From positions 1 to 64,000 of the IMG/VR virus record IMGVR_UViG_3300021400_001287: a stretch of 64,000 nucleotides of DNA; one strand, given 5' to 3'. Origin of the DNA: a virus. Lineage: Duplodnaviria > Caudoviricetes. The notes under the pieces were generated by a model. It saw only the letters and a program-made list of their open reading frames with translations. It was not told where the DNA came from and did no database searches. Shown piece by piece: positions 1 through 50,236 of the stretch. The stretch's first letter is position 1, and each line of letters begins with the position of its first letter. The translations under genes and the position numbers were made by a program.

Positions 1-406
1 TCTGAGCGACGAAATTGCCAAAGTCTTCTAACCCCAGCCGGCGTCGCAACATATTTGCTACGACCGACGGCAGATGATATGCCGAACTGCTGGCAAGATC
101 AGTAGCCGCCCACTCAATGTCTTCGCTGACGCCCAGCTTGCGACATAAATTATGAAGCGTGCTAAACTGGATATCCAATTGATCTAACTCATACGTATCG
201 AGATAGTCGAGCGAAACGGGGAGACTCGACACAAACGTCACTTCGGTGTCTGTTTTGAACGCGGAGGCAATTTTGTCGTGGAAACCTTTTCCGGTCAGAA
301 CGAGCGTGTGCGATATCTTGGCTGTCTGGCACAGATAACAGATGCAGCAGTAAGCAATGGCGTCGTACTGGTTGCCGTCACTCAGAAACAGTATCTCTTT
401 TTTCAT
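1..406 (-). CDS. hypothetical protein (runs off the window edge)
   Basis: ATG at 406 overlapping the RuvC 3' end; frame open to position 1 (MKKEILFLSDGNQYDA...). Confidence 0.6.
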   Translation of the reverse strand, partial: MKKEILFLSDGNQYDAIAYCCICYLCQTAKISHTLVLTGKGFHDKIASAFKTDTEVTFVSSLPVSLDYLDTYELDQLDIQFSTLHNLCRKLGVSEDIEWAATDLASSSAYHLPSVVANMLRRRLGLEDFGNFVAQ

Positions 407-935
407 CCAAATAGCCCTCTCTAAGCAAAAAAGCTATACCAACAGCGACCGCGTCGGATTCGTCATCCGTCTCGTAGACTTGGTCGCCAACATACGGTCG
501 CAAACATCGAGCCACATGTGGCTTGGTCGCGTTACCTTTGCCGGTGACGATGCGTTTGACTGTGGACGGGGCGAGTTCATACCAACCGGTATGTTTTACT
601 TGCCAGAGCGCAACATCAGCAACACCACCGACACGAAGCAGACGATCCGTGTCCGCGATATGCGAGATGACCGCTTTCTCGCGGACAAAGACCGTTGCGT
701 CTACGGGAGCCAGCAAATCAGTAAGCTGGTCGAAGAAGATAGCCAAGCCATGCCCCAGCACTTTCAACGTTCCGATGGGCAGGTTCAGCTTCTTGAGAAT
801 GGATACTTCGCGCTTGGTTGCGTCATAATGGAGCACAGCCAAACCGGAGCAATGATAGGAAAAGTCGCCGACCTACATGTTAAAATCCCCGTCGACGTGA
901 GGAATGGGTTTTTCACGACGTCGTTTCTTAGCCAT
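378..935 (-). CDS. ruvC: RuvC-like Holliday junction resolvase (in-frame TAG at codon 21, 873-875)
   Basis: GAGGTG RBS + ATG 935; FNM*VGDFSYHCSGLAV supplies the first catalytic strand missing from the track ORF; later motifs VREKA, PSTVKRIVTGKGNATK, DESDAVAVG. Confidence 0.85.
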
Positions 936-1600: not shown

Positions 1601-2206
1601 GTTCAAGAAATTTTTTTTCGACAAAAGTAGATGTGTGGCCATTGCACCAATGATATTGCCGAACGCAACGATGATAATGTGGCCAAGGTGGAACTGCCCG
1701 GCTGCGCAGAAGTAAAACATATCAGCAACGCAATGCTCGAATCCGCAGAGAATAAACGCGGGGATAGCGAGCAATATGCCAAGCGGCGATCCGTCTTGAC
1801 GATACTTCCACACGGCAAAGTGAACGAGCACGCCACACAAAAGTCCAGACACATACGTTTGCACCGCAGATTGGGCCATCCGCGTTTGTACGATGGAGAC
1901 AGTAGCTTCGATAATATGTGGCGAAGCTAACCGAATCAACACAGCGCACCCCGCTGCGCCGATATAATTGCCAACGAACATGATCAGCAAACTGCCAACG
2001 TAAGATACGTTCATCTCGTCGGCTAAATACCCCGCCTTACCCGTCACCAAGTTCATGCCACTACAGCAGATGGCGTACAGACCGACACAAAACAGAAATG
2101 CGCCCAGGAAATTATTGCCACACAAACAAGAAGAGCCCCCGCCGATGCCAATAAAGACACCAGCGGGGATAGAATAAAGGAACGTAGAACTGAAAGACTT
2201 TTTCAT
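1583..2206 (-). CDS. formate/nitrite transporter (FNT/FocA family)
   Basis: AGVFIGIGG, NLVTG, CGVLVH, FILCGFEHCVADMFY, GNIIG motifs; multiple hydrophobic helices. Confidence 0.85.
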   Translation of the reverse strand: MKKSFSSTFLYSIPAGVFIGIGGGSSCLCGNNFLGAFLFCVGLYAICCSGMNLVTGKAGYLADEMNVSYVGSLLIMFVGNYIGAAGCAVLIRLASPHIIEATVSIVQTRMAQSAVQTYVSGLLCGVLVHFAVWKYRQDGSPLGILLAIPAFILCGFEHCVADMFYFCAAGQFHLGHIIIVAFGNIIGAMATHLLLSKKNFLNHSQFF

Positions 2207-2721
2207 GCAACCTCCAACTCGACTATATGCCCGGTCACAATAGTTGCGGGGACATCGATGATGCGCTGATTTCGACTGCCGCAAAACGGCAACGTAATGT
2301 CACGTTCAGCAAGAATGAATGGACCGTCAACGAGAACGCTGCATAGATTAAGAACATACCTTGCGTCTTTCATGTTGGGCAGCTCTTCAAAATGATATCC
2401 AGTGTAAATCCACAGACTCTTTTCTGGGAACTTCGACACAAACCAGTCGGCGATCCTGGCAGTTGCGTCAGGCGAGTCGAATGGTTCACCTCCAGAAATA
2501 GTCAAACGACGGATATTCGGATCGGAGCAACGCTCTTCGAGTTGCTTCATAATTGCCGAGTCGAAAAGTTGCCCGCCATTCGGGTCCCATGTTGACGGAT
2601 TATGGCAACCTTTGCAATGATGGCTACAGCCTTGGAGGAACAGAGTCACTCCAAAGCCGAGCCCATTGCACACTTCGCATGGATCGATACCAGCGACGCG
2701 AAAATGGTTATCCATTCGCAT
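2203..2721 (-). CDS. nrdG: anaerobic ribonucleotide reductase activase (radical SAM)
   Basis: QGCSHHCKGCHN, ISGGEP, WIYTGY, GSRNQR; adjacent to nrdD. Confidence 0.95.
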   Translation of the reverse strand: MRMDNHFRVAGIDPCEVCNGLGFGVTLFLQGCSHHCKGCHNPSTWDPNGGQLFDSAIMKQLEERCSDPNIRRLTISGGEPFDSPDATARIADWFVSKFPEKSLWIYTGYHFEELPNMKDARYVLNLCSVLVDGPFILAERDITLPFCGSRNQRIIDVPATIVTGHIVELEVA

Positions 2722-3688
2722 GTCGAACCCTCATTTCTACCTCTTGCTGTTTACCTTCATTGAATGCCGCCAAGTAATCTCCGGACAAGTAGCCCGTTAC
2801 GCGACGCAGACGCTTGATGTCTTTGCTGCCACACATCGGGCAAGTATCGTTGATCTCGTCCGTGTATCCGCAATTCATACACATGTCGTTCGGGACGTTG
2901 ATGGCAAAGTACGGGATATCATGATCCATTGCGTACAACACCAGTTGTTCCAGCGCGTCAATATTGTGTTTGACTGTGGAGCCAAGCTCGACGTATGTGA
3001 TGCAACCAGCATTGGAGTAGCCAGTCAACTGGGATTCAATATCGATCTTCTTAAATGGATCGACTTTCTCCCAGACAGGAACGTGCATCGAGTTGGTGAA
3101 GTACTTCTTGTCGGACACGTTGGGAATTTCGCCATACTTGGCTTTGAATTTATTCATCGCCGTAAAACACAGGTTTTCTGAAGGCGTGAAGTACACCCCA
3201 AAATTCAACTTGTACTCATTCTTAAACTCTGCACACCGTGTCTTATAGAGTTGTTCGATCCGTTTTGCCAACTCCATGCCTTTGTCGGTCGTATGGTTAC
3301 ACCCGATCAGAATTTGTAACGCTTCAGCCAGACCGAGCTGCCCGATAGCCAATGTACCATGTCTCATTGCCGATTCAACAGTCTCGCCATCATAACCAGC
3401 CATAACGTTGTTTTCATACATGAACTTTGCACTGTCGGGAGACTGAGCGCAAATGTAATGATACCTCTCGATCAACATATCTTTGGCTTCGTGGATTTTT
3501 TGATCGAGTAACTTCATGAAACAGTCAACGATGGTTCCTTCGTCGTGAGCGGTGTCGACGCAACTCAGAATCTCTTCTTTCACTTCCATCGCCAACGTGG
3601 GCAAGATGATCGTAACGGGGCAGATATTGCCGCGCCCATCTTTAAGCTGGCCAAAACCGTTGATATCGAATCCATTGGACGTTCTACA
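2708..3688 (-). CDS. nrdD: class III ribonucleotide reductase, exon 2
   Basis: begins CRTSNG; TPSENLC, YFTNSMH, CxxC..CxxC and RRVTGYL glycyl-radical motif. Confidence 0.95.
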   Translation of the reverse strand, partial: CRTSNGFDINGFGQLKDGRGNICPVTIILPTLAMEVKEEILSCVDTAHDEGTIVDCFMKLLDQKIHEAKDMLIERYHYICAQSPDSAKFMYENNVMAGYDGETVESAMRHGTLAIGQLGLAEALQILIGCNHTTDKGMELAKRIEQLYKTRCAEFKNEYKLNFGVYFTPSENLCFTAMNKFKAKYGEIPNVSDKKYFTNSMHVPVWEKVDPFKKIDIESQLTGYSNAGCITYVELGSTVKHNIDALEQLVLYAMDHDIPYFAINVPNDMCMNCGYTDEINDTCPMCGSKDIKRLRRVTGYLSGDYLAAFNEGKQQEVEMRVRHANG

Positions 3689-4523
3689 CATATTATCCAC
3701 CGTCGCCGGTGGTACTGACTATATCATCCACAAATAATGTGGCCTTCCGCTTCGGGCGGGTGCCTATCTCCCGTCCTACTCCCGTACATTCATCCGGGAT
3801 AGTCGATACACTTTTCAATCAGATGGTTTTGTCCTAAAGAATGAGTCGTCTTGGTACACTATATCCCATTGCCCCAGATATAGCCCCCGCGTTTGATGCA
3901 ATACCCTAGTCGTAATGAATCGATGATGTTTTTCACCAAAGTGCGCCCTGCATGCTTCAACTGTATCGAAAAATAATACTTCGCCGGTGTCTACGTTTCT
4001 GCATTTTACAGATTTGGCACGTGGGTTTCGTGCTCCAAGTTTACTTTGGCTTATCTTTCTGGAAATTACTTCCATCTCATCATCTGTTTTGGATTGATAC
4101 GTGTTGCCTCCACACTTCGATAACGCATCTGTTTCATTGTAACCATTAGCAACGCTGTCGTAAGCACGTATCCAGTATTGCTCTTTCATATTCAGCTCAT
4201 CTTGAGTAGAAGCCGTATCAATGCACTCTATGCGAAACGCATTTCTGCCATACTTTCGTATTGCTCTCGCAAAATGGGTGTTCAATTTGCCATTCTACGC
4301 ATCACAAAGGTGACGCTTAAAGCGGTCTTCTATGGGGCGAATAGATTGACCGATGTAAACTTTATCGTTTACGTTGTTCGTAATTTTGTACACAAACATA
4401 AGTTACCTCATCTGATTGACTTAGCACGGTCTCAACTCAAAGAGTCCTAACCGTTAGCCCACAATAAGTGGACACCTCCGGGCGGAGTTCAAAAGGTTTT
4501 ACATGGGCTGTAGTGTTGCGCTT
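3689..4523 (-). mobile_element. group I self-splicing intron in nrdD (835 nt)
   Basis: exon 1 ends ATGGGU, pairing with intron GCCCAT (P1, U.G); intron CTACA pairs with exon 2 TGTAG (P10); intron ends in G (3689); splicing restores TMG|CRT. Confidence 0.92.
3815..4399 (-). CDS. intron-encoded GIY-YIG homing endonuclease (in-frame TAG at codon 35, 4295-4297)
   Basis: MFVYKITNNVNDKVYIGQS..RFKRHLCDA*NGKLNTHFARAIRKYG..E..WI..GYN; GAGG RBS. Confidence 0.9.
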
Positions 4524-5756
4524 ACCCATTGTACTGAACATTGTACGCTTATCGTTCGGGTCGTACCCAGCATTGCCAGACCAGTCTACATTGGCGTAGT
4601 TCGGATAAAGACGACGAGCTGTAGACTTGAGCGCTAAGCGGAACAAGTCATAGTTAGGATCTCCGGGCTTCTGGTTGACACCTTTCTGACATTGGAAGAT
4701 ACCGCAAGGGAAGATAGGAGTACGATGCAATTTACCGATGCCATCAACGGAAACGTCGAGCAAAGCCTTCGTAATCATGCGGCCTTCGGGCAACGTACAA
4801 GTGCCATAATTAATGGAAGTAAACGGGAGCTGACAACCGGAGCGCGATTGCAATGTATTTAAGTTGTGGTACATGCCTTCAACCGCTTGATGAATCTCTT
4901 TTTCGGTCATATCCATGGCATATTGCCATGCGCGGGGGGCCCAATACGTGTTGCGGTCATCGATGGGCGTTGCGGGGTTCGGATACGGGACATTATCTTC
5001 GGGCACATAAGTATCGTCGATATACTTCATACCGTCAACATAATGCTTGTAGAAACTCTTGCGGACGTAAGGGACCATCGTCCAGTCAAGATGTGTCGCG
5101 CTGACCCCTCCGAACTGTTGCAACGACTGCAACTGGAAGATAACGGCGACCAACTGGAATGCCGTGTTGACCGAGTTAGCGGGACGTACGTCAGTCTGGC
5201 GTGTGTTGAATCCGTTGGCAAGCAAGTCATCAAACGGAATACTGAGGCAGTTGTGGTCACCAATCGCGTAATGGTCGAGATCGTGGATGTATATCTCGTT
5301 GTTCAGATGATTGTTTCTGGACATCTCCGACATACATTCATCCAGCGCGTACTGCTTCATCACTTCACTGCTGACAGCACCAATACGTCCACCGAACGAC
5401 TTTTCATCCACATTCGCATTCTGGTTCTCCACGTTATTGGCAAGCAGTTTTTCACGCACACGCCGCATCAACTCAGTCTTGCTATTACGAATTCGACTGC
5501 GGTCGTTTCTATATATAATGTACTCTTTGGCCGTAGGTTTCAGCGACGTCTTCATGAGCTTCAGTTCGACCATGTTCTGAATCTGCTCGACGTCCAAGAT
5601 ATCGCCGGGAGAGTTCTCAATTTCGTCGGCAATACGTTCAACCGTATCCGGTTCATCCTGACCAGCCCGTTTCATTGCGGGTGTGATGGCATCGATAATT
5701 TTCTTTCGGCTGAACGGCTCGATGCGACCGTCCCGCTTTCTGATACGGGTTACCAT
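4524..5756 (-). CDS. nrdD: class III ribonucleotide reductase, exon 1
   Basis: ATP cone (IRKRDGR, VEQIQNMVE), IYIHDLD, HNCL, QFGGVS, NLNTLQSRSG, YPNY. Confidence 0.95.
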
Positions 5757-13996: not shown

Positions 13997-14737
13997 TTAT
14001 CGAATCCAAATGGGGCAATGAGCGCATTGTGAGCGCACATCGCAGAGGAAACGGCAATGAAAGTCGTCTTGATGGTAATTGTAGTCCATGTCCATACAGA
14101 TAGCGTCCACCGTCGACACCGCCCAGACTTCGGTTGCCTTCATCTGCTCCATGGTGAACTCTTCTTTGATCAATTCACCCGTTTTGAGCATGTTGAAAGC
14201 CAATGTTTTGGGGTATTCGCCGTATTGGTCTTTGACATGAGCCGCGTAGATGTACAACTGGTTACGGAAGCGGTCGATGTCTTTCTTCATCGACGCTGTG
14301 GACTTGGTTTTATGGTCGACGACCATCAATGACCCGTCTTCCTGGCTTCTCAATACCAAGTCAGCAATGCCATCGAACTCATACGGTCCAATGGGTACCG
14401 TGAAACGGCGTTCGGACGAGACAATGTCATAGCCGGGGAAGCCGTTGAACGACGCGAAGTAATTCGAGCACATAACACGGGCTTTTTCACGATAGTTCTT
14501 CATGAACGGGGGAAACTCATGCTCAATGGCCGTGTCGTAACCGGCTTCCCACTCCATTTGCAACTGTTCGGGCTTCAATTCGCCCTTTGCCCATTTATCG
14601 AGCAATGAGTGAGCGAAGGTACCGTAATCCGAGAACGCGTTGCCAGATCCATGGCGATGGTCTTCGGCCAGATAGGTGAGATAGTAAGCGTAGGGACAAG
14701 CGAGGTATGTCTCCTACTTGGAGAACGACCAGGACAT
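13997..14737 (-). CDS. PD-(D/E)XK exonuclease, AddB/Cas4-like (in-frame TAG at codon 8, 14714-14716)
   Basis: AGGAGG RBS; MSWSFSK*ETYLACPY..YGTFAH..GIADL..DHKT..QLYIY..C..C..C. Confidence 0.9.
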
Positions 14738-14749
14738 ACACATTCCTCC

Positions 14750-16622: not shown

Positions 16623-16698
16623 TGGTACCGCCGGCGGGAGTCGAACCCGTAACCGCTGGGTTTGGGCCAGCTCCATATGCCAATTCTGGTACGGCGGC
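16623..16698 (-). tRNA. tRNA-Leu(CAA), short variable loop, C33
   Basis: cloverleaf GCCGCCG..AGAATTGGCATAT..GCTGG-CCCAAAC-CCAGC..TTCGACT..A-CCA. Confidence 0.8.
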
Positions 16699-17035: not shown

Positions 17036-17113
17036 TGGTCTTCACGGAGAGATTCGAACTCTCACTGACAGCAGCTTAAATGCCGTGCCTACTGCCAATT
17101 GGGCTACGTGAAG
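17036..17113 (-). tRNA. tRNA-Leu(TAA), short variable loop
   Basis: CTTCACG..AATTGGCAG..CGGCA-TTTAAGC-TGCTG..TTCGAAT..A-CCA. Confidence 0.8.
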
Positions 17114-18113: not shown

Positions 18114-18189
18114 TGGTGTCACCCCGTGGTAACGATCCACGCTCTGCGAATTTATAGTCCGCCGCTTTCACCGTGTAAGCTAGGGTGGC
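18114..18189 (-). tRNA. atypical tRNA, anticodon ATA (Tyr-like or degenerate)
   Basis: cloverleaf with CCA; GCGGA-CTATAAA-TTCGC; non-canonical T loop ATCGTTA; one acceptor mismatch. Confidence 0.6.
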
Positions 18190-18378: not shown

Positions 18379-18452
18379 GGAGTCCAGTTGGAGTCGAACC
18401 AACAAATTAGCGCTGTTTGATGCGCCCGCACTGCCCATTGTGCTATGGACTC
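18379..18452 (-). tRNA. degenerate tRNA with 8-nt anticodon loop
   Basis: GAGTCCA/TGGACTC acceptor, GCAC/GTGC D stem, loop ATCAAACA, TTCGACT; no encoded CCA. Confidence 0.5.
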
Positions 18453-21230: not shown

Positions 21231-21629
21231 TCAGTTGCCGCTGAACAGGTCTTCCACGTTGTTGCTGTTGTTGTAGCTGTTGCCACCATTGTAGTTGGTA
21301 TTGCCATTGCCATTGTTCGGCTGGTAGGTGAGTGACTCGATGCTGTTGGCTTTCATCGTGATGTTGACGCCCGCGGTGCCGTCCTTCTTATTGAAGGGCT
21401 TGACGCAAACCGAGCCGGTCGCCGCCAGCTTGTTGCCCTTCTTCATCCGGGCGAGTGTATCCCACTGCGGACCCCAGACAGACACTTCATAGAAGTTGGT
21501 GATGTAGTTCCCGCTGTCGTCTTTGAAGGGCGTATGTACGGCAACATTGGCGCTGGCCATCTGTCGGCCATTGTATTCCCCGATGCGGGGATCAGCCACC
21601 AAGTTGCCGATGATCGTGGTATTAACCAT
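21231..21629 (-). CDS. ssb: single-stranded DNA-binding protein
   Basis: IIGNLVADP, TNFYEVSVWG, KKGNKL, N/G-rich tail. Confidence 0.9.
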   Translation of the reverse strand: MVNTTIIGNLVADPRIGEYNGRQMASANVAVHTPFKDDSGNYITNFYEVSVWGPQWDTLARMKKGNKLAATGSVCVKPFNKKDGTAGVNITMKANSIESLTYQPNNGNGNTNYNGGNSYNNSNNVEDLFSGN

Positions 21630-22236
21630 TGGGGTAAGCCTCCTTGAGCGCTTTCAAAATTCTGGACTGTGTCGCCGTATCAGTAATGTCACGGAAATTC
21701 ATGGAGCCATTGTTATGTTTGGCAATAAGTTCACCAGCCGCTTTGCGCTGTTCAAGCGTCAGAGCGGAGACAATTCCCACGACTTCATCGGCAAAAGCGG
21801 ACGAAGCCTTCGGCTGGGGTTTATTGTTGCTGTTGTTATTGCTGACTTGATCGAACTGATCGGCTTCCACGATGTCGAGCACCATCATGTAGAGATACCG
21901 ACGTTGATAGGTCTCCACACCACCGAGCAACTGTACCGCGTTCGCGCCTTTGAGTTCCAGATCTCGCATGGGAGAGGTGAACGTGAGTGTTTCTTCCGGC
22001 TTCTCGATGTTTACGAGAGTCAGCGTCGCTTCGGTGTCACTGAAAGAGATGAGGTCACAGAGCATAAGCTCATTGAAAATTTCCGTCTTCGGCGGGACGA
22101 TGTCATCCAGCTCGAAGTAATCGTACTTGGAGAACGTGTTGCGTCCAGACTTCTTCACGTTCTTCCGCTGGAACATCTACCGGGCTGTCTCCAGCTTGGC
22201 GTAAATGTTCGTCTGTTCCGGGGTTTTCGTGGCCAT
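21622..22236 (-). CDS. ERF-family ssDNA-annealing protein (in-frame TAG at codon 20, 22177-22179)
   Basis: AAGGAG RBS + ATG 22236; NIYAKLETAR*MF..KKSGRN..YFELDDI..GGVETYQRRYL. Confidence 0.88.
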
Positions 22237-50156: not shown

Positions 50157-50236
50157 CGGGGCGTAGTAGAATTGGCATATACGGGGGACTCTAAATCTCC
50201 GCCGTTTTATGGGTTCGAATCCCATCGCCCCGACCA
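50157..50236 (+). tRNA. amber suppressor tRNA (anticodon CTA), tRNA-Leu-like
   Basis: perfect 7-bp acceptor CGGGGCG/CGCCCCG, GGGGA-CTCTAAA-TCTCC, ATGGG-TTCGAAT-CCCAT, A73-CCA; anticodon at 50191-50193. Confidence 0.93.

Follow-up and report, generated by a model that had tools for sequence, protein, structure and literature searches.

In a tailed phage (Duplodnaviria; Caudoviricetes; IMG/VR record IMGVR_UViG_3300021400_001287), the class III ribonucleotide reductase gene nrdD is split at its catalytic site by an 835-nt insert, which in turn carries the open reading frame (ORF) of a GIY-YIG homing endonuclease containing a single in-frame TAG. The window analyzed here comprises the first 64 kb of the complete 91,208-bp genome, the ends of which overlap by ∼108 bp; all positions refer to it. 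In all likelihood, the insert is a subgroup IA2 group I intron with a complete endonuclease gene, the TAG of which is read as a sense codon, most likely for leucine, by a tRNA(CUA) of the phage. The architecture of the intron, the integrity of the ORF, the conservation of its TAG, purifying selection on the frame, and its agreement with the code of the phage carry this reading.

A group I intron directly before the catalytic cysteine codon of nrdD

When the two nrdD exons (Table 1) were joined in silico (predicted junction: ...ACAATGGGT joined to TGTAGAACG), a protein of 737 aa resulted that aligned to NrdD of phage T4 without a break across the junction, where STMG/CR (the slash marks the splice site) faces SPMGC290R. 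In T4 NrdD, Cys290 is the thiyl-radical cysteine. Because the alignment puts MG/CR at this residue, the insert (4523..3689) is positioned directly 5′ of the predicted catalytic cysteine codon. The exons also abut in the Pfam NRDD profile, of which exon 1 matches positions 2–257 (E 5e-64) and exon 2 positions 264–562 (E 2e-76); exon 1 additionally matches the ATP-cone (E 1e-21) and, in database matches, resembles NrdD structures in the PDB, and exon 2 matches Gly_radical. The reading frame of exon 1 continues for 28 codons into the insert (4437..4523, minus strand), through P3 and both extra hairpins described below and into P4, to a TGA at 4439..4437; therefore, ribosomes on unspliced RNA would cover the 5′ part of the core.

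A previous reading of this DNA, made from the sequence alone, had proposed a group I intron at the MG/CR site with clear P1 and P10 pairings and a terminal G. All three can be read directly from the sequence: the exon bases ATGGGT (4529..4524) pair with GCCCAT of the internal guide sequence (IGS) to form P1, with U·G at the splice site, and CTACA (4513..4509) pairs with TGTAG of exon 2 (3688..3684) to form P10. The site itself is now fixed by exact coordinates and by the alignment to T4 NrdD. P7, together with the R and S elements, is identical to its counterpart in the T4 td/nrdD intron core, and P4/P5 is homologous to ...UAAACGGGG...CCCGUGCUAA of T4 td/sunY.

The family was collected by searching IMG/VR for the patterns of two core motifs, which yielded over 100 viral contigs. 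Essentially without exception, the element is preceded by ATGGGT (..MG) of nrdD and ends in G before Cys-Arg codons; at ∼90 family loci, essentially all Gly codons are GGT. Across 72 distinct cores (ORF cut out), covariation is seen in P3, P5, P6/P6a, P7.2, P8, and P9 as well as in two hairpins that are peculiar to the family and lie between P3 and J3/4. The outer pair of P3 is UA in 42 and CG in 30 sequences, and thus paired in 72/72; the two hairpins show up to six pair types per position, P7.2 four to five, and P8 and P9 three to five. Of the 67 pairs in the consensus from these cores, the window copy forms 66, and the consensus fold of 13 natural ORF-less copies contains compensatory changes at 23 pairs. 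When the whole 91-kb genome was searched with an nhmmer profile of the family built without the window copy, the only matches were 4516–4410 (E 1e-24) and 3830–3691 (E 4e-33). By its architecture and covariation, the insert is thus identified as a T4 td/sunY-type (IA2) group I intron. It would be expected to self-splice, and splicing would be required for NrdD to be made.

An intact endonuclease gene with one in-frame TAG

The terminator of the endonuclease ORF lies inside the 3′ strand of P6a, 8 nt ahead of the R element. As had been noticed from the sequence alone, the TAG (codon 35) separates the YIG/Arg26/His30 motifs from the catalytic Glu73; the Pfam match to GIY-YIG (PF01541, E 4e-11, residues 2–89) spans it. 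The residues conserved in the family alignment (VYK..YIGQ, R26, H30, E73, and N88) are present in the window copy. No Pfam domain was found in residues 90–194; relatives of 253 aa have PF07453, and many intact standard-code homologues of 199–205 aa share the short form. A database search returned 1,686 homologues; many are standard-code proteins of 199–205 aa, and for some the source annotation reads "group I intron endonuclease". Among standard-code homologues, the nearest is 66% identical.

Should the TAG be a nonsense mutation, the endonuclease would be dead and the intron would persist as a ribozyme only. Under translation table 11 the ORF is indeed broken, and ORF-less and degenerate versions of the intron exist. 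Public annotations bear out the expectation that standard gene calling would break the gene: the same alleles appear as shortened calls (P0122, 156 aa, and P0124, 124 aa, the latter on a 14,256-nt contig) or with Gln at the TAG, as in the closest database protein (P0001, 194 aa, Q at position 35) and in two members of the same cluster (P0121 and P0123). The 14,256-nt contig X2, which stems from another study and is 95% identical, spans 3400–4800 with 71 differences and no gaps, and none of the differences falls on 4295–4297. Applying them to the ORF gives P0001 residue for residue with the codon-35 TAG retained; therefore, the Q in the database reflects translation of a conserved TAG under code 15. 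Within the ORF, X2 (∼4% divergence) differs at 24 nucleotides, 19 synonymous and 5 non-synonymous (4 residues), a pattern with a probability of 4e-8 under neutrality. Upstream of the TAG, where all residues are identical, there are two synonymous changes. This synonymous excess argues that selection keeps the full-length frame on both sides of the TAG. Further inactivating lesions, which the sequence-only reading had named as grounds for rejecting its interpretation, were looked for, and apart from the codon-35 TAG the ORF contains neither a stop nor a frameshift. Together with the complete set of catalytic motifs, a matching tRNA, the use of TAG as sense in this phage, and a Leu-type column at codon 35 (see below), these data leave decay of the gene scarcely credible: the full frame, judged by its substitution pattern, is under purifying selection and the gene is no pseudogene. 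These features speak for a functional endonuclease, which would be predicted to cleave the intron-less allele. A pattern scan of viral and metagenome contigs around codon 35 for close relatives found nothing.

The phage reads TAG as sense, most likely as leucine

That the endonuclease is written in the code of its phage, as had been proposed, agrees with the suppressor tRNA(CUA), with TAGs in late genes, and with selection on both sides of the conserved TAG. The tRNA(CUA) shares a three-pair D stem and the D loop GAAUUGGCAUAU with the tRNA-Leu(CAA) of the phage. In-frame TAGs occur in the plus-strand late genes for terminase, portal, capsid, tape measure, and others, mostly in the first 40 codons; over the genome, TAG positions cluster within the first ∼40 codons (codons 2, 10, 20, 35, 19, 21, 14, 9, etc.). 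Genome counts were limited to homology-confirmed genes, because spurious antisense ORFs arise at 50% GC. To deduce the amino acid, nine late proteins were compared with those of eight related contigs. Facing in-frame TAGs of the relatives, the window phage has Leu at 23 of 47 positions (background 6.8%, p 4e-15) and Gln at 2 of 47. Conversely, opposite the TAG sites of the window phage the relatives have Leu (15), Ile (5), Lys (6), Arg (5), and Trp (4). Comparison of codon 35 among cognate introns, a check suggested by the sequence-only reading, gave the same picture: in an alignment of 52 endonucleases (motif RHxxDA[L/I/M/V]NN), the TAG occupies a conserved hydrophobic position, a column of L/I/M/V in all 51 homologues (L 25, I 12, M 8, V 3) from which Q is absent. 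Thus, TAG in this phage most likely specifies Leu and not the usually assumed Gln. In the literature searched, the coverage of which was limited, no phage was found to be described as reading TAG as Leu.

The origin of the codon-35 TAG can be considered in this light. Had the endonuclease or the whole intron homed in from a phage with TAG = Gln, the codon would be a Gln relic. The family is common among such phages, their endonucleases carry one to five TAGs, and database translations show Q at codon 35. However, TAG = Gln relatives put their TAGs at Gln columns, whereas the codon-35 column is without Gln in 51 homologues; the database Q is a product of code 15, since the same alleles are also found as shortened calls and X2 keeps the TAG; and the nearest standard-code homologue is only 66% identical. 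Import therefore seems highly improbable. The TAG looks home-grown in this lineage, because a Leu codon is one step away from TAG.

Further tRNA genes of the phage were observed. Its tRNA-Leu(CAA) and tRNA-Leu(UAA) (16623..16698 and 17036..17113, minus strand) have 4-nt variable loops and not the long arm of bacterial tRNA-Leu; with the amber suppressor, the variable loop of which has 8 nt, both have in common a D stem of 3 bp and a GAAUUGGCA D loop. At 18379..18452 (minus strand), ARAGORN predicts a tRNA with an eight-membered anticodon loop, the four-base anticodon CAAA, and no encoded CCA (Rfam tRNA, 48.8 bits), which may be a tRNA resembling quadruplet or frameshift suppressors, or else a prediction that is folded wrongly. 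Another, at 18114..18189 (minus strand), is called Tyr; its anticodon, AUA, is unusual, and its acceptor stem contains a mismatch.

Family endonucleases follow the codes of their hosts

Introns of the family range from 238–355 nt (no ORF) to ∼1,150 nt. Some 80 copies, a count that includes duplicates, bear an ORF, of which ∼45 are open in the standard code, whereas 27 are open only if TAG is sense (one to five TAGs per ORF) and 6 only if TGA is sense. In sister introns, TAGs occupy the invariant Gln of YIGQ (46/46) and other Gln-rich columns, and TGAs (L035, L045, L117, and L122) occupy invariant Trp columns; in no family endonuclease is the recoded codon the terminator of the ORF itself. Judged by these columns, intron endonucleases follow the code of their host phage.

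Against GenBank phages, blastn with the whole region gave no match, and with an ORF-less family member it gave only the short T4-type core. Among bovine and goat gut metagenomes of several studies, the runs X2, X7, and X11 contain a 94–100% identical nrdD–intron–endonuclease stretch (3400..4800), all copies of which retain intron and ORF. The same gut samples also contain family members with a different insert, or none, between 3814 and 4420. Joints between 3814 and 4420 in X2 and X7 were considered as excision products and rejected, as they represent these other members of the family; a joint from 3644 to 4561 in X7, which derives from a divergent nrdD, was disregarded. No RNA run containing the locus was identified: in the two metatranscriptomes of the source sample, sequence words of the locus were next to absent, and a contig covering 4286–4529, from a run that is RNA only by conjecture, gave no information on splicing.

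Additional nrdD introns were encountered in many related phages. In L035, L042, L072, and L114, one with its own R and S elements lies ∼110–126 codons upstream of the MG/CR intron and ends right before ..NTLQSRSG, near the T4 sunY site. A different-looking intron, ∼101–108 codons upstream, ends before ..QLPFTSINYGT in L061, L070, L074, L089, and L106. In phages with such further introns, nrdD is split into at least three pieces.

An in-frame stop as a possible gate for endonuclease synthesis

The sequence-only reading had further suggested that the TAG is an "amber lock" that delays cutting until the suppressor is present. T4 intron endonucleases residing in early genes are translated only late by means of hairpins that sequester the ribosome-binding site (RBS) and of late promoters (PMC2988022). 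For Agate phages, in which the endonuclease of a group I intron in an early gene is preferentially TGA-recoded, it has been proposed that in-frame stops block endonuclease production until late in infection (Borges et al., bioRxiv 10.1101/2021.08.26.457843; later Nature Microbiology 2022). A stop that needs a phage tRNA could give the same late timing as the T4 devices. Without tRNA(CUA), translation would stop after 34 residues, before the catalytic Glu, and endonuclease production would therefore depend on the suppressor; synthesis would be coupled to the TAG-bearing class of genes (late genes and nucleases). Ribosomes would also be kept off the 3′ end of the ORF, that is, off P6a beside the P7 core, while the nrdD pre-mRNA folds and splices. 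That the endonuclease would be inert in a standard-code genome follows logically from the predicted termination.

The host gene, nrdD of the window phage, has no in-frame TAG in 739 codons. Among family loci that had been chosen for a recoded stop in the endonuclease and that are phylogenetically non-independent, 20 distinct TAG-type endonucleases contain 48 TAGs in 4,064 codons, compared with 38 in 12,813 codons of nrdD. In the 10 phages with a TAG-free nrdD, the endonucleases have 24 in 1,959 codons versus 0 in 6,052, and four TGA-type copies have 12 TGAs in 837 endonuclease codons versus 1 in 2,689 of nrdD. With one recoded stop subtracted per endonuclease to account for ascertainment, the differences remained (p 0.001 for TAG-type, 2.5e-9 for TAG-free nrdD, and 7e-5 for TGA-type). 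Other phages of the family differ in this respect: those with TAG = Gln (L001/L038, a 161-kb contig, L048, L049, L097, and L120) have 2–14 in-frame TAGs in nrdD itself, and recoding in them is not limited to late genes, unlike in the window phage and ∼10 others with TAG-free nrdD. In the window phage, the suppressor tRNA gene lies within the TAG-bearing arm, and the otherwise TAG-free replication arm contains one N-terminal TAG each in genes for a RuvC-like protein, a PD-(D/E)XK nuclease, and an ERF recombinase (Table 1). Upstream of the endonuclease ORF, no RBS-sequestering hairpin was found (the local fold leaves the Shine–Dalgarno sequence unpaired), nor a sigma-70-like promoter or a terminator, which is weak negative evidence in both cases.

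Several observations speak against parts of this interpretation. Rfam, which had been suggested as a check on the intron, contradicted the expectation: no group I match was obtained at the gathering score or, for region 3500–4700, at E ≤ 10. Chance snoRNA and riboswitch matches were the sole output near the locus at E up to 10 and were set aside. Since the intron is of the phage IA2 type and has a 585-nt ORF in P6a, we ascribe the miss to the limits of the models and judge the T4-related core and the covariation to stand. Opposite some TAG sites the relatives have K, R, or W, and it is from alignments and tRNA shape that we infer the identity of the inserted amino acid as Leu. As to the gate, the window copy taken singly (1 TAG in 194 endonuclease codons) does not differ significantly from nrdD (p 0.21), one TAG-bearing gene lies upstream of the suppressor tRNA, and the family comparison is weakened by the choice and relatedness of its loci.

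The TAG may also have arisen as a neutral by-product: once a Leu-inserting tRNA(CUA) is present, a change from TTG to TAG would be harmless and could have drifted into a gene that is late for other reasons. We regard this as a serious possibility, if not a probable one. It would account for the occurrence of only one TAG in the ORF, which by itself does not set it apart from nrdD, at a site where Leu is the commonest residue and TTG is one mutation away, and T4 achieves late synthesis of its intron endonucleases by other means. It fits less well with the retention of the TAG in a 4%-diverged relative despite 24 other changes in the ORF, with the clustering of TAGs in the first ∼40 codons of genes throughout the genome, or with the excess of recoded stops in endonucleases over nrdD, which is seen in many phages and under two codes; nor was an alternative device for late expression detected upstream of the ORF. 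An amber lock that delays cutting, a hypothesis published before, is thus plausible and consistent with the data. Self-splicing, late synthesis of the endonuclease, and a benefit from the lock are points that we infer.

A more far-reaching proposal is that the TAG is a selected device with two jobs. As an early stop for ribosomes, ∼480 nt before the 3′ end of the ORF, it would let the ribozyme fold and nrdD splice; as a code-based passport, it would confine endonuclease activity to phages that carry the matching suppressor. We put this forward tentatively and consider it rather unlikely. If true, orthologous introns at a single position of nrdD would have adjusted, independently of one another, to four codes (standard, TAG = Gln, TGA = Trp, and, in the window phage, TAG = Leu), and the family would provide a natural experiment on how selfish elements track changes of the genetic code.

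Comparison with known systems

The T4 nrdD (sunY) intron, likewise of subgroup IA2, resides in the same host gene and also encodes a GIY-YIG endonuclease (I-TevII). Over a 35-nt stretch of the core it is 94% identical to a family member, and it shares with the family GUAAAAUCU...P3 context, the R and S elements, P7.1, the GNRA hairpin of P9, and the IGS GCUCAU. It differs in its site, ∼115 codons upstream (AYE/YEVNTL), in the position of the I-TevII ORF, which is 3′ of the core and not in P6a, and in lacking the two hairpins between P3 and J3/4; I-TevII uses the standard code and is gated by a promoter and an RBS hairpin. In the T4 nrdD intron (NC_000866, L146), the IGS GCUCAU acts on the exon sequence AUGAGU, whereas family members have GCUCAU or GCCCAU on AUGGGU, 115 codons downstream (e.g., L020:4250–4579). 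The two exon sites differ by one base, which would fit a move of an ancestral intron between sites within nrdD.

With the T4 td intron (I-TevI), the window intron has in common subgroup IA2, an ORF looped out of P6a, and the order of the GIY-YIG motifs. The 3′ cores of the two introns are nearly the same (CGACUAUCCC...GGGAGUAGG...GAUAUAGUC). The host gene differs, being that of thymidylate synthase. The td endonuclease, too, is located in an early gene and translated only late (PMC2988022), but the delay results from RBS sequestration on the early transcript, a late promoter, and autorepression rather than from an in-frame stop; in the window intron, neither a hairpin nor a promoter of this kind was detected.

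The endonuclease of the Agate phages, an early-gene intron endonuclease preferentially written with the recoded stop of its phage (10.1101/2021.08.26.457843), follows the same concept. There, the codon is TGA, whereas the window intron uses TAG, only once, and apparently for Leu rather than Trp or Gln. The code-15 (TAG = Gln) gut phages (crAss-like and Lak) likewise encode a suppressor tRNA and concentrate recoded stops in late genes. In the clade of the window phage, by contrast, TAG aligns to Leu far more often than to Gln, as reported above, and the tRNA body is Leu-type; a code-15 translation mislabels codon 35 as Gln.

Coordinates of the locus

The features of the intron, the flanking genes, and the genes named in connection with the amber codon are collected in Table 1.

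Table 1. Features of the nrdD locus and of related genes in the 64-kb window; helices and functions are predicted.
Feature	Position	Strand	Remarks
nrdD exon 1	4524..5756	minus	411 codons; ATP-cone and N-terminal part of NrdD; ends ...FSTMG
nrdD exon 2	2708..3688	minus	Starts CRTSNG with the catalytic Cys; holds the Gly-radical domain
nrdG	2203..2721	minus	Follows the split nrdD
Group I intron, td/sunY-like (IA2)	3689..4523	minus	835 nt; ORF in P6a loop
Internal guide sequence	4503..4513	minus	GCCCAT (4508..4503) and preceding CTACA (4513..4509)
P3, 5′ strand	4490..4496	minus	CCUUUUG; partner CGGAAGG at 3749..3743
Two family-specific hairpins	4457..4487	minus	CUCC..GGAG and GUCCAC..GUGGGC; between P3 and J3/4
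P4 enclosing P5	4426..4454	minus	P4 ACGGUU/GACCGU, invariant; P5 GACUC/GAGUU, covaries
P6 and P6a, 5′ strands	4409..4425	minus	P6 GCU; P6a UCAAUCAGAUG; 11-bp perfect complement to 3825..3815; helix covaries
Shine–Dalgarno sequence	4409..4406	minus	GAGG; abuts P6a 5′ strand; ATG seven bases downstream
GIY-YIG homing endonuclease ORF	3815..4399	minus	ATG 4399..4397 to TGA 3817..3815; 194 codons
In-frame TAG, codon 35	4295..4297	minus	Sole in-frame stop; most likely Leu
P6a and P6, 3′ strands	3810..3825	minus	P6a CAUCUGAUUGA, including final ORF codons and TGA; P6 AGU
P7, 5′ strand	3799..3804	minus	GACUAU in R element GUAUCGACUAUCC; invariant in 72 cores
P7.1 and P7.2	3756..3798	minus	CCCG..CGGG and CGGG..CCCG; extra helices, hallmark of subgroup IA
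P8, S element, and P9	3697..3742	minus	P8 CCACA/UGUGG (3742..3728); P9 CCACCG-GCGA-CGGUGG (3712..3697)
P7, 3′ strand	3722..3717	minus	AUAGUC in S element GAUAUAGUC; partner of GACUAU
Terminal (omega) G	3689	minus	Family members all end in G before TGY-AGR/CGN (Cys-Arg)
tRNA, anticodon CUA (suppressor)	50157..50236	plus	ARAGORN and Rfam; Leu-type D arm, A73
RuvC-like gene	381..878	minus	TAG at codon 2
PD-(D/E)XK nuclease gene	14000..14743	minus	TAG at codon 10, inside the Pfam match
ERF recombinase gene	21625..22236	minus	TAG at codon 20

Implications

The concept of gating by a recoded stop is already known (Borges et al., 10.1101/2021.08.26.457843), and the novelty of the present case is modest, consisting of another codon and another amino acid. 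Its value lies in part in annotation: intron endonucleases of recoded phages are systematically mis-annotated, either as fragments or with TAG translated as Gln, which here is probably the wrong residue. Two by-products emerge, namely, a large and well-supported group I family, invisible to Rfam, that interrupts the class III ribonucleotide reductase gene at its catalytic cysteine, and a comparison of its endonucleases across codes. With one ORF, one TAG, and one tRNA, the locus would make a compact test system. Finally, a single family at a single site, with endonucleases richer in recoded stops than the early gene that hosts them, would lend independent comparative support to expression timed by recoding.

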